This document shows, piece after piece, positions 3,856 to 36,256 of a stretch of 64,000 nt of DNA. The stretch comes from Thermoproteota archaeon. Its GTDB lineage: Archaea > Korarchaeota > JAOZGF01 > JAOZFZ01. A program made the translations under genes and the position numbers. The stretch is from assembly GCA_027492035.1 (NCBI GenBank), contig JAOZFT010000004.1, positions 320,001 through 384,000 of the forward strand, written 5' to 3'. Below the pieces are notes generated by a model, which was given only the letters and a program-made list of their open reading frames with translations, had not been told where the DNA came from and did no database searches. Position 1 is the first letter of the stretch. Each line of letters opens with the position of its first letter.

Positions 3856-3954
3856 GCCGCCGTAGCTCAGCCGGTAGAGCGAGGGACTTGTAATCCCTTG
3901 GTCGAGGGTTCAAAAACCTGTGTGTTTCCCAGGTTGGGAATCCCTCCGGCGGCT
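3856..3954 (+). tRNA. tRNA-Thr(TGT), 26-nt intron at 59/60 (3915-3940)
   Basis: Cloverleaf; BHB TTCA-AAA-ACCTG...CAGGT-TGGG-AAT in T loop. Confidence 0.93.
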
Positions 3955-3969
3955 GTCCCTATCTCTCCA

Positions 3970-7653: not shown

Positions 7654-7747
7654 CGGGCCCGGCGGGATTTTCATCCATTATAGAATTTTGAACCCGCAAT
7701 CTTCGGCTCCGGAGGCCGAAATGTTGTCCTTTTTACACCACGGGCCC
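7654..7747 (-). tRNA. tRNA-Arg(CCG), 19-nt intron at 59/60 (7668-7686)
   Basis: Cloverleaf; BHB TTCA-AAA-TTC...GGA-TGAA-AAT. Confidence 0.92.
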
Positions 7748-14078: not shown

Positions 14079-14211
14079 GCCGGGGTGGCTCAGGCGGTTA
14101 GTTTTTAAAAGAAACTAAAGCGCCAGACTCATAAACCTAGACGGAAAAAGTCGAGACATCTGGAGGTCGCGGGTTCGAACGGTCAGCTGCCTGAAAAACC
14201 CGCCCCCGGCA
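14079..14211 (+). tRNA. tRNA-Met(CAT), elongator type, introns at 22/23 (14102-14118), 37/38 (14134-14157), 59/60 (14180-14197)
   Basis: Removing three BHB-bounded inserts gives a standard cloverleaf with GCCGGGG acceptor. Confidence 0.92.
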
Positions 14212-14292: not shown

Positions 14293-14390
14293 AGCCCTGG
14301 GAGGGATTCGAACCCTCGGCCTGCTGCTTTCTAGTTCGTTACGAGGATCGGCTTCTTGAATCAGCCGCTCTACCGCTAAGCTACCAGGGC
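14293..14390 (-). tRNA. tRNA-Thr(CGT), introns at 30/31 (14347-14361) and 37/38 (14329-14339)
   Basis: Mature arm GCTGC CT CGT AA GCAGC; BHB CGGC-TGA-TTC..GAA-GCCG-ATC. Confidence 0.9.
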
Positions 14391-27625: not shown

Positions 27626-27677
27626 ATGGAAAAAATTTATAAAAAGGGGAAGGAATGAATAGAAAAGGGTGGAGAGA

Positions 27678-27989
27678 CAGGGGATAGGTAGGGGGCTCGG
27701 GGTCCCCTGAACCGTAAACCCTCGAAACGACGGGCCGAATGCTGCTGCGGTGAATCCTTCGCCTGTACAAAGCATCAGCTTAGGAGAAATGAAAACAGTC
27801 ACCCTTGGGGGCAGCGGAGCTAACCCAGTTTCCGGAGGGAAACAAAAGGGTTAGTTGAGCTGAGGGGAAAAAGCCAGGCCTGGAAAGGAGCAACTTAAAC
27901 CCTCTAACGCTGCCGCTCAAGGGAGAGGCTGCAGATCTCCAAGTTGATGCCGAGTGCAGCTGAAGGTTTTGCTGCAGTAGAATCCCCTG
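27678..27989 (+). ncRNA. ffs: SRP (7S) RNA
   Basis: Alu-like 5' GGGGGCTCGGGGTCCCCTGAACC, helix 8 GCCAGGCCTGGAAAGGAGCAAC, terminal CAGGGGAT/ATCCCCTG; ~310 nt. Confidence 0.92.
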
Positions 27990-27997
27990 CTCCAAAA

Positions 27998-28082
27998 GCC
28001 GGGGTACTCCAGCCAGGTAGGAGGCGGGCCTGCTAAGCCCGTGGCTCTTGGAGCCTCGTGGGTTCAAATCCCACCCCCGGCG
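27998..28082 (+). tRNA. tRNA-Ser(GCT), no intron
   Basis: Type II cloverleaf, G73. Confidence 0.95.
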
Positions 28083-34433: not shown

Positions 34434-35094
34434 AAAAAGGGGGAAAGTAATTCTTACCTTGGCTGCAATTTTTTTAGTTGCAGCTTCAACCTACTACCTC
34501 ACTTACAAACACAACATGAACCCTCTAAACAATCCTCCATCAAAAATAGAGAAAATAATTATTTTAATAAACGAAAAAGATGCCACTGAATCAATGGGGA
34601 AAGAAAAACTAAACTACACATTAGCTGTTTCAAGCATAAGTTACATACTGCCTTTTGCCTCCAATCTAAAATACACTGTGGAGGAAGGAACCCTACTCAT
34701 AAACAGTTCAAAAGATATAAACATAAGCAAGGCAAATGAAACAACTCCCATAATTTACTTAATAGGGCCGATAGGAGGAGCGAAACAGACAGGCATAATA
34801 TTAAGGGAACATTCAGTAGTAGTTGAAGGGGAAACCTACACAAAACTCTTCTCAGCTACAGACCTGCTAAACTACTTCCTTCTGAAAAACCTAAAGCCAA
34901 AAATTGTCTACAGCACAAAACATCAATCATACGCCCTATATTTCCAACATCCACTCTCAGGGAAAATAATACCTGCTCCCTGGTACTCTAACAAACCACT
35001 ACAAGAACTAATGAACACTGTTTCCCTGGAACACGAAAACGGAACACCTGCTTCAGCAAATGAGGTAAGAGCACTAATTTTAGGTGAAAAATAA
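34417..35094 (+). CDS. N-terminally anchored hypothetical surface protein
   Basis: N-terminal TM, NxS/T sequons, overlaps upstream gene. Confidence 0.75.
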   Translation: MKDLVKKRGKVILTLAAIFLVAASTYYLTYKHNMNPLNNPPSKIEKIIILINEKDATESMGKEKLNYTLAVSSISYILPFASNLKYTVEEGTLLINSSKDINISKANETTPIIYLIGPIGGAKQTGIILREHSVVVEGETYTKLFSATDLLNYFLLKNLKPKIVYSTKHQSYALYFQHPLSGKIIPAPWYSNKPLQELMNTVSLEHENGTPASANEVRALILGEK

Positions 35095-35135
35095 ACTTTT
35101 AAAAAACATTAACAAAGATATAGAAATGTAGCGGT

Positions 35136-35224
35136 GCAGCCGTGGTCTAGCCAGGTAGGACGGGAGATTCATTGAACCCAAGCCCCCCAAGCTCCCAACG
35201 CGGGTTCAAATCCCGCCGGCTGCA
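35136..35224 (+). tRNA. tRNA-Gly(CCC), 16-nt intron at 30/31 (35167-35182), C33
   Basis: Mature arm GGAGC CC CCC AA GCTCC; BHB CGGG-AGA-TTC..GAA-CCCA-AGC. Confidence 0.87.
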
Positions 35225-35430
35225 TTTTTTCATACACATGAAAAAGGTTTTTTAGGTGGAAAAGCCTTAAATTGCTGCTTCAGCCCTTGGAACCTAGTTT
35301 TTTTCAGAATTGATTCCTTAAGGAAAACGTAAAGCTTTAAAAATTCAAGGCTATTCTTTATTGTTGAGAAAGGGTGGAGAGCTTAAAAATCTTTACAGAA
35401 AAGGCCTTTTCAGTTTGAGTTTTTAAAAAA

Positions 35431-35549
35431 GCGCCCGTCGTCTAGTCATGGCTTAAAATGTTTTTAAGCCGCTAAGGGACTAGGACACAGGCCCTCCAAG
35501 CCTGTAACGCGGGTTCAAATGAAGTAATCTGAAAATCCCGCCGGGCGCA
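35431..35549 (+). tRNA. tRNA-Gly(TCC), introns at 17a/18 (35449-35476) and 59/60 (35520-35535), C33
   Basis: Full BHB GTC-TAGT-CAT-GGCTTAAAA...TTTTAAGCC-GCTA-AGG-GAC; arm CAGGC CC TCC AA GCCTG. Confidence 0.9.
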
Positions 35550-35578
35550 TCTACTCCTTTCGAAAAGGGTGCAATGTT

Positions 35579-36256
35579 TTGCTGCATCTTGTTTTGGCTG
35601 AAGCCTCCCTTGAAAAGGTACCTCTCTCCCTTTTCAACCATCCTCAAGTTGTTAGTTATTGTAGGAAAAGGAAAATCAAGCCTAAAGAAGCTATTTTAGA
35701 TACAAGCTATCATTTCGAAGCTGTTAAAAAACTCCCTTTTAAACATAAAAGAGGCAGACCTGACATTGTCCATTTCTTCCTCCTTTTAACACAAGATAGT
35801 TTAGTGAATAAAGTGGGAAAATTAAGAACTTACATACATACCTTAAACAACGAAGTAATATATGTAAACCCGGGAACTAGGCCACCTAAACATTACGACA
35901 GATTTTTGGGGTTGATGCAGCAGCTTTTCAAAGAAGGACAAGTCCCCCCAAAAAAAGAAGCTTTATTTTTAATCAAGAAAAAGAATTTGGCAGATTTAAA
36001 AAAGGAGATCAACCCAGACATAACTATCGGTCTATCCCGGAAAGGAAAAGTTATTAATCCCTTCAAATACTTTGGAAAGATAAATAAGGAAAAAAGCGTA
36101 GCTGTAATTGTTGGGGGATTTCCTCACGGCAACTTCTGCAGCGAAACCTTGGAAGTAATAGATCAATTATTTAGTTTAGGCAATTACCCCCTGCAAACCT
36201 GGACAGTAACTTCTTTAGTGCTTTGCTCCTACTGCCAATCCTTACTCCACTACTAA
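35579..36256 (+). CDS. nep1: 16S rRNA pseudouridine methyltransferase Nep1
   Basis: LAEASLE, KRGRPDIVH, RPPKHYDRFLGLM, VGGFPHG. Confidence 0.95.
   Translation: MLHLVLAEASLEKVPLSLFNHPQVVSYCRKRKIKPKEAILDTSYHFEAVKKLPFKHKRGRPDIVHFFLLLTQDSLVNKVGKLRTYIHTLNNEVIYVNPGTRPPKHYDRFLGLMQQLFKEGQVPPKKEALFLIKKKNLADLKKEINPDITIGLSRKGKVINPFKYFGKINKEKSVAVIVGGFPHGNFCSETLEVIDQLFSLGNYPLQTWTVTSLVLCSYCQSLLHY

Follow-up and report, generated by a model that had tools for sequence, protein, structure and literature searches.

Cytidine 33 in the intron-containing tRNA-Gly(CCC) and tRNA-Gly(UCC) genes of a korarchaeal genome and in related tRNA genes of other lineages

Introduction

Two neighbouring tRNA-Gly genes of a Korarchaeota genome, with anticodons CCC and UCC, carry C at position 33 of the anticodon loop, where U33 makes the classical U-turn. 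The reading that we prefer, with a probability of about 0.7, is that this C33 is genomically encoded and heritable, and that it works as such in tRNAs that decode the GGR codons of glycine. As far as tRNA genes reveal, C33 in archaea is restricted to the GGR-decoding glycine isoacceptors; it prevails in this phylum and recurs as a minority state elsewhere. Glycine-specific loss of U33 appears to be a broader pattern that has been little described. A search of the main text of published articles returned no description of C33 in tRNA-Gly, and the passages of Grosjean and Westhof that treat departures from U33 list only eukaryotic initiator tRNA and Candida tRNA-Ser (PMC5041475).

The two genes lie in a window of 64,000 nucleotides (the whole stretch of DNA that was analysed, contig C9:320001-384000) within a genome of 1.87 Mb in 42 contigs that is 93% complete. 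The initial annotation of this window had singled out both genes and proposed C-to-U editing or altered decoding. Its view of C33 as real, free of sequencing error and specific to glycine tRNAs has stood up to the analysis below, whereas editing and altered decoding did not gain support.

Results and Discussion

Two intact tRNA-Gly genes encode C33

The pre-tRNA gene for tRNA-Gly(CCC) (35136-35224, + strand) contains one intron, ends with discriminator A35224 and scores 48.4 bits against the Rfam tRNA family RF00005. In-silico splicing yields a 73-nt RNA with a full cloverleaf that ARAGORN calls tRNA-Gly(ccc), built from the acceptor stem GCAGCCG/CGGCTGC followed by A73, the D stem GTCT/GGAC and the T arm GCGGG-TTCAAAT-CCCGC. 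RNAfold returns a cloverleaf of -37.3 kcal/mol for this spliced tRNA, and likewise for the spliced tRNA-Gly(UCC). The anticodon loop, CCCCCAA, spans 35184-35190 (+) and comprises C32 (35184), C33 (35185), the anticodon CCC (35186-35188), A37 (35189) and A38 (35190). A run of six T (35225-35230, +) immediately 3′ of the discriminator is likely to serve as the transcription stop.

The bulge-helix-bulge motif of archaeal tRNA introns comprises two 3-nt bulges on either side of a 4-bp helix, with helices on the flanks. In the tRNA-Gly(CCC) gene a 16-nt intron (35167-35182, +), inserted between positions 30 and 31, splits the anticodon stem GGAG|C/GCTCC and forms a relaxed version of this motif. 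Its central helix has three of four possible pairs (G35162-64 with C35177-79), its inner helix has 3 bp, and its bulges are AG|A and AG|C. The central helix lacks a directly adjoining outer pair, and is followed by one mismatch and then by two G:C pairs. When bulge-helix-bulge geometry was checked by script, 35167-35182 was the sole candidate splice that yields a cloverleaf, and moving the junction by one base leaves the mature sequence identical. Moreover, the reading of C33 is independent of the exact intron boundary, because the anticodon loop sits entirely within the 3′ exon.

The second pre-tRNA gene, for tRNA-Gly(UCC) (35431-35549, + strand; discriminator A35549), follows the first in tandem on the same strand at a spacing of about 200 bp and contains two introns. 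Its spliced form, of 75 nt, also folds into a full cloverleaf, which ARAGORN calls tRNA-Gly(tcc). The anticodon loop CCTCCAA (35493-35499, +) comprises C32 (35493), C33 (35494), the anticodon TCC (35495-35497), A37 (35498) and A38 (35499), and is closed by the intron-free stem CAGGC/GCCTG. Both introns conform to strict bulge-helix-bulge motifs. In the 28-nt D-loop intron (35449-35476, +), a central helix with four of four pairs (TAGT/GCTA) lies between a 3-bp outer and a 9-bp inner helix, and the bulges are CA|T and AG|G. In the 16-nt T-loop intron between positions 59 and 60 (35520-35535, +), the 5-bp T stem is itself the outer helix, the central helix TTCA/TGAA again has four of four pairs, and both bulges are AA|T. 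Direct reading of positions 35000-35700 places the two cytidines at 35185 and 35494, in loops CC-CCC-AA and CC-TCC-AA, exactly where the initial annotation had put them.

The identity rules of archaeal tRNA-Gly include discriminator A73 and the pair C2:G71. Both genes possess A73 and C2:G71 together with G1:C72, and they share the 7-bp acceptor stem, the 7-nt anticodon loop and the NCC anticodon of archaeal elongator tRNA-Gly, lacking only its U33. Neither gene has signs of a pseudogene or silent copy: the cloverleaves are intact and the assembly holds no second CCC or UCC anticodon arm. Judged by these features, the two are functional, intron-containing elongator tRNA genes.

Standard tools handle these genes poorly. 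The tRNA-Gly(UCC) gene gives no match from ARAGORN on raw DNA or from Rfam, even with E values up to 1, while tRNA-Gly(CCC) is detected by Rfam without its anticodon loop being aligned or placed. ARAGORN on raw DNA miscalls the latter gene as tRNA-???(tcat), with a four-base anticodon, or as tRNA-SeC(tca), with an 18-nt intron. We rejected these readings: they require T as the discriminator and T:A as the first pair, the splice that they imply is backed by no bulge-helix-bulge candidate, and the orthologue in another genome of the same order (G002) has the same CCCCCAA loop. With its intron option, ARAGORN labels Gly-CCC (C9:355135-355225) as tRNA-SeC(tca), Gln-CTG (C9:228151-228235) as tRNA-Pyl(cta), and both Val-CAC and Ser-GGA (C9:150501-150593 and C9:310858-310964) as Phe(aaa). 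Automatic annotation of the intron-containing tRNA genes in this genome would be misleading.

Intron sites and the splicing endonuclease

The genome encodes its splicing endonuclease as one 378-aa protein (C9:442896-444032; L132:649-1785) with two matches each to Pfam PF02778 and PF01974, and no gene for a second subunit was seen in the genome. This single tandem-repeat enzyme coexists with many introns at non-canonical positions, including the relaxed motif of tRNA-Gly(CCC).

A T-loop intron site, located after TTCAAA, is shared by at least five tRNA genes: Thr-TGT (about 3863-3960, +), Arg-CCG (about 7654-7747, -), Met-CAT (about 14079-14211, +), Gly-UCC (intron 35520-35535, +) and Lys-TTT (C9:419964-420054, -). 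Most of these introns end in ...TGAAAA(T), and tRNA-Gly(UCC) of the only other genome from the same family (G001) has an intron at the same site. The pairing needed by the TTCA strand within the bulge-helix-bulge motif may be enough to account for the common ending. By eye, Thr-CGT (14293-14390, -) also appears to carry two introns, one of them at 30/31 like the tRNA-Gly(CCC) intron at 35167-35182 (+). Both 30/31 introns begin with ATTCA, and an intron could have spread between these two genes.

The only CCC and UCC isoacceptors of the genome lack U33

The window contains twelve tRNA genes, a count that agrees with the initial annotation. The ten non-glycine genes (Thr-TGT, Pro-TGG, Leu-CAA, Arg-CCG, Ala-CGC, Ile-GAT, Met-CAT, Thr-CGT, Ser-GCT and Arg-TCT) all have T33 when their loops are read by eye; Met-CAT and Arg-CCG were found solely through a search for interrupted T arms. 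Among 36 Rfam tRNA hits across the genome, C33 occurs only in Gly(CCC) (35 loops were read, and Thr-CGT, with its two introns, was parsed separately), and the genome's own initiator-like tRNA-Met has T33.

A search of the assembly for NCC anticodon arms recovered three genes, namely Gly(CCC), Gly(UCC) and a Gly(GCC) gene on the 2.4-kb contig C40, whose loop CTGCCAC contains T33. A fourth match, on contig C12, is an A+U-rich hairpin without a T arm or other cloverleaf context and was not accepted as a tRNA. The initial annotation had allowed that U33 versions of the two isoacceptors might exist alongside silent C33 genes; none is present among the 42 contigs of this 93%-complete assembly. GGA and GGG account for 35.5% and 22.7%, together 58%, of the 21,768 glycine codons in 707 long ORFs. 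Because the two C33 genes are the sole CCC and UCC genes and GGA and GGG are the majority, both tRNAs must serve translation and carry most glycine decoding.

C33 lengthens the C run of tRNA-Gly(CCC) to six residues (C31 to C36), which might permit four-base pairing with GGGG and hence altered or frameshift-prone decoding, and glycine frameshift-suppressor tRNAs with a CCCC anticodon provide a precedent. We consider such decoding very improbable here, since the loop has the normal 7 nt and C33 also occurs in the UCC isoacceptor, where there is no C run. Furthermore, G is not depleted after in-frame GGG in this genome, where it follows 35.7% of these codons compared to 32.4% of codons overall, 36.9% for AGG and 36.8% for GAG.

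Other RNA genes of the window encode 16S rRNA, the start of 23S rRNA, 5S rRNA and SRP RNA. The SRP RNA gene (27676-27991, +) ends 6 nt upstream of tRNA-Ser(GCT) (27998-28082, +), and the two may be co-transcribed. All tRNA genes that we found (36 Rfam hits and 23 ARAGORN calls) map to about 30-448 kb of the 666-kb contig C9, except Gly(GCC) at C40:515-589. The rRNA operon, 5S rRNA and SRP RNA occupy the same part of C9, and no tRNA gene was found on the remaining 40 contigs, about 1.2 Mb, in a search in which Rfam scored 150 of 190 candidates. This concentration may be real clustering of RNA genes or an effect of binning. The Gly(GCC) gene (C40:515-592) has an encoded CCA end, which C9 tRNAs mostly lack, and a CCGGG T stem as opposed to GCGGG in both C9 glycine genes. 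Between position 31 and the T loop, a single base separates it from genes of G085 and G101, two genomes that belong to another phylum, and the short contig might be foreign to this organism.

C33 is the majority state within the phylum

We surveyed 43 genomes of the phylum, including the window's own, with a pattern that runs from position 31 to the T loop and detects genes that have the T arm GGTTCRAWT, a variable region of 4 nt and an intron-free stretch from position 31 to position 60. Of these genomes, 33 yielded a readable Gly(CCC/UCC) gene, and 26 of the 33 carry C33, in a total of 42 genes. Many of these 42 are not independent observations, because tRNA sequences are near-identical within the largest genus. 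T33 was found in ten Gly(YCC) genes, one in each of ten genomes, seven of which have T33 only. Gly(GCC) genes carry T33 in 26 of 26 cases.

Close relatives reveal both conservation and change. In G001, the Gly(UCC) gene retains C33 even though its anticodon stem has diverged (TAGCC/GGCTA versus CAGGC/GCCTG); this gene escaped the survey pattern because of its T-loop intron. In G002 the CCC and UCC genes are likewise arranged in tandem, the former with C33 and the latter with T33. A further genome (G007) has two copies of Gly(UCC) separated by about 2 kb, one with C33 and one with T33. A phylum-wide search for C33 in any tRNA returned true examples from Gly(YCC) only, in agreement with the glycine specificity noted in the initial annotation. 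The other rows proved to be intron ends or Pro-CGG and Thr-CGT genes, with variable loops of 5 nt, that had been read out of register. The same search found no C33 in Pro, Ala or Arg tRNAs, which also have strong anticodons.

The occurrence of C33 in the orthologues of the nearest relatives (G001 and G002) and across the phylum confirms that the base is not a sequencing error. Apart from the rarity of C33, nothing favours a sequencing or assembly artefact or a pair of pseudogenes, and we give this possibility almost no credence, given the same base in independent assemblies, the intact cloverleaves and the status of the two genes as sole copies for the majority glycine codons. On the evidence of these genes, C33 is a genomic character that descends from an ancestor within the phylum.

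These comparisons also make it unlikely that C33 is an identity element for glycyl-tRNA synthetase (GlyRS), as had been suggested. U33 versions of the YCC isoacceptors exist in relatives (UCC in G002, both states in G007), and an identity role is further disfavoured because the same enzyme charges the Gly(GCC) tRNA, which bears U33 throughout the phylum survey.

C33 recurs in other archaea and in bacteria

To estimate archaeal frequencies, samples from three other phyla were searched with a pattern in which position 33 could be either C or T, and seed genomes that had been chosen for C33 were excluded. To be detected in these samples, a gene had to have a GGGTTCRAWT T arm, a variable region of 4 nt and an intron-free stretch from position 31 to position 60; the survey counts were made by hand. 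Genomes with C33 numbered two of the 24 that have a readable YCC gene in the first phylum (91 genomes searched), six of 48 in the second (61 searched) and four of 38 in the third (51 searched, with one genome flagged as unpublished left out), a share of about 8-13%. Every archaeal Gly(GCC) row in the three samples has T33. Frequencies of this order, together with the predominance of C33 in the phylum of the window, make the trait largely common among archaeal tRNA-Gly genes and weigh against the special local mechanism envisaged by the initial annotation.

A broad scan of one genome per species, covering 185,579 prokaryote species, for C33 combined with an NCC anticodon and a T arm gave at least 121 matches in at least 120 stretches; it tells where C33 occurs, not how frequently. 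Among the 121 matches listed, 67 have in-register 5-bp anticodon and T stems, and 43 of these carry archaeal labels (25 UCC, 18 CCC and no GCC). The archaeal labels among the matches listed include Micrarchaeota, Iainarchaeota, Woesearchaeota, Nanoarchaeota, Thermoplasmata, Theionarchaea, Syntrophoarchaeum, Hadarchaeota, Bathyarchaeia, Nitrososphaeria, Asgard, Methanobacteriota and Thermococci. Nitrososphaerales and Methanobacteriaceae are also among the groups that encode C33 in Gly(UCC/CCC).

The other 24 in-register examples among the matches listed have bacterial labels (11 GCC, 10 UCC, 2 CCC and 1 ACC). Within this list bacteria differ from archaea, in that C33 extends to the GCC isoacceptor, as in Pyrinomonadaceae (L002, L074 and L113) and Planctomycetes (L037, L071, L090, L098 and L116), while UCC genes with C33 occur in Clostridia/Erysipelotrichaceae (L003, L017, L039, L066 and L107). 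The two CCC matches with bacterial labels (L012, 'bacterium', and L058, 'Spirochaetes bacterium') are archaeal-type tRNA-Gly(CCC) genes that are identical, over the compared stretch, to genes from an 'archaeon' MAG (L077) and an Asgard MAG (L030). Their contigs are probably mislabelled or contaminant.

Editing to U33 is improbable

C33 might be converted to U33 post-transcriptionally by an editing enzyme, or be otherwise modified to restore the U-turn, in which case C at the gene level would be neutral. A precedent for editing exists in Methanopyrus kandleri, where CDAT8, a deaminase domain fused to a THUMP domain, performs C8-to-U8 editing of tRNAs. U33 is described as close to invariant in elongator tRNAs (PMC5041475), and T33 and C33 interchange freely between close relatives and even coexist in one genome (G007; G002), as would be expected of neutrality under editing.

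However, this 93%-complete genome yields no match to PF00383 or PF14437, the cytidine/dCMP deaminase families, whereas 12 of 14 control genomes do. This genome encodes two THUMP proteins, ThiI and one of 182 aa that consists of THUMP only, neither of which is a CDAT8-like fusion, so the glycine-specific deaminase suggested at the outset finds no counterpart here. Moreover, the scatter of the trait is wide: many archaeal phyla and several bacterial groups have it, and each would need the enzyme. Restoration of U33 is consequently improbable in our estimation.

How C33 might function

We favour instead the reading that C33 works as such, and these gene-level data suggest that it most likely stays C in the mature tRNA. 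The pre-tRNAs would be cut at their bulge-helix-bulge motifs by the tandem-repeat splicing endonuclease and then ligated, and the products would be charged by GlyRS and decode GGA and GGG. With C33, the anticodon loop would forgo the U33 imino hydrogen bond of the classical U-turn. Anticodons that end in C35-C36 give the strongest first- and second-position codon pairs. C33 may be tolerated, or be mildly useful for weakening the loop, because with such pairs the U33 contact would be dispensable. This rationale of tolerance or tuning extrapolates from what is established about the U-turn and about strong codon pairing through G:C. The strength of G:C pairing alone is insufficient to explain an effect confined to glycine, because Pro, Ala and Arg tRNAs lack C33 throughout the phylum.

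A more far-reaching reading, which we put forward only tentatively and regard as rather doubtful, is that C33 in GGR-decoding glycine tRNAs is a selected, isoacceptor-specific alternative to the U33 U-turn that has arisen many times in Archaea and Bacteria, and that it might tune the decoding of the strongest codons or block an anticodon-loop enzyme. If so, the rule that U33 is invariant in elongator tRNAs would have a systematic, glycine-specific exception. In a bolder and still conceivable version, an enzyme from beyond the deaminase families known so far would convert C33 to U.

C33 could also have been selected as a recognition signal, which blocks an anticodon-loop enzyme responsible for modification at position 32 or 34, or protects the GGR decoders from an anticodon nuclease. 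Such an effect is reported for TrmJ of Sulfolobus acidocaldarius, which 2′-O-methylates position 32 and whose activity is abolished by a change of U33 to C33 (PMC4105751). The limitation of the trait to particular isoacceptors and its retention despite a changed anticodon stem fit this proposal, but no enzyme, toxin or co-varying gene was identified, and the same isoacceptors work with U33 in sister lineages. An anti-determinant role is a live alternative, albeit an unlikely one.

For this window, C33 is an ordinary inherited trait of the phylum and probably not the mark of a local editing system. The wider correction to a textbook rule is modest but real. U33 is missing from the sole tRNAs for GGA and GGG in the majority of genomes of one archaeal phylum and in roughly a tenth of those sampled from three other phyla, and the GCC isoacceptor retains U33 in archaea. 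These genes constitute a natural test set for the contribution of U33 to A-site decoding. Any census of such exceptions will be biased by standard tRNA finders, which miss or miscall multi-intron genes.

Comparison with known systems

Archaeal tRNA genes with several introns at non-canonical positions are familiar from the Thermoproteales. The genes described here resemble them in having bulge-helix-bulge introns in the D loop, anticodon stem and T loop, and in being missed or miscalled by standard finders. They differ with respect to the splicing endonuclease, which in this genome is a single 378-aa protein with two repeats of N-domain plus C-domain; no two separate subunit genes were seen.

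As in the CDAT8 case of Methanopyrus kandleri, an archaeal tRNA gene encodes C where U is structurally expected. Unlike that system, which relies on a dedicated deaminase-THUMP fusion, this genome yielded no deaminase domain, and C33 is known here from DNA.

Two natural examples of C33 are closer in kind. Eukaryotic cytosolic initiator tRNA-Met likewise has a natural, conserved C33 in a functional tRNA, according to the parts of two accounts that concern this position (PMC5041475, PMC9023262). Whereas the initiator binds the P site, the glycine tRNAs considered here are elongators that must enter the A site. Wolff et al. (2020) note C33 in tRNA-Cys(GCA) of Sulfolobales (PMC7668247), and this parallel, as that account presents it, is also an archaeal elongator tRNA with a genomically encoded, clade-wide C33, both cases being established at the level of genes. 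The Sulfolobales example involves another amino acid and anticodon and is described there for one order, whereas the C33 reported here is specific to Gly(CCC/UCC) in archaea and recurs in many phyla.
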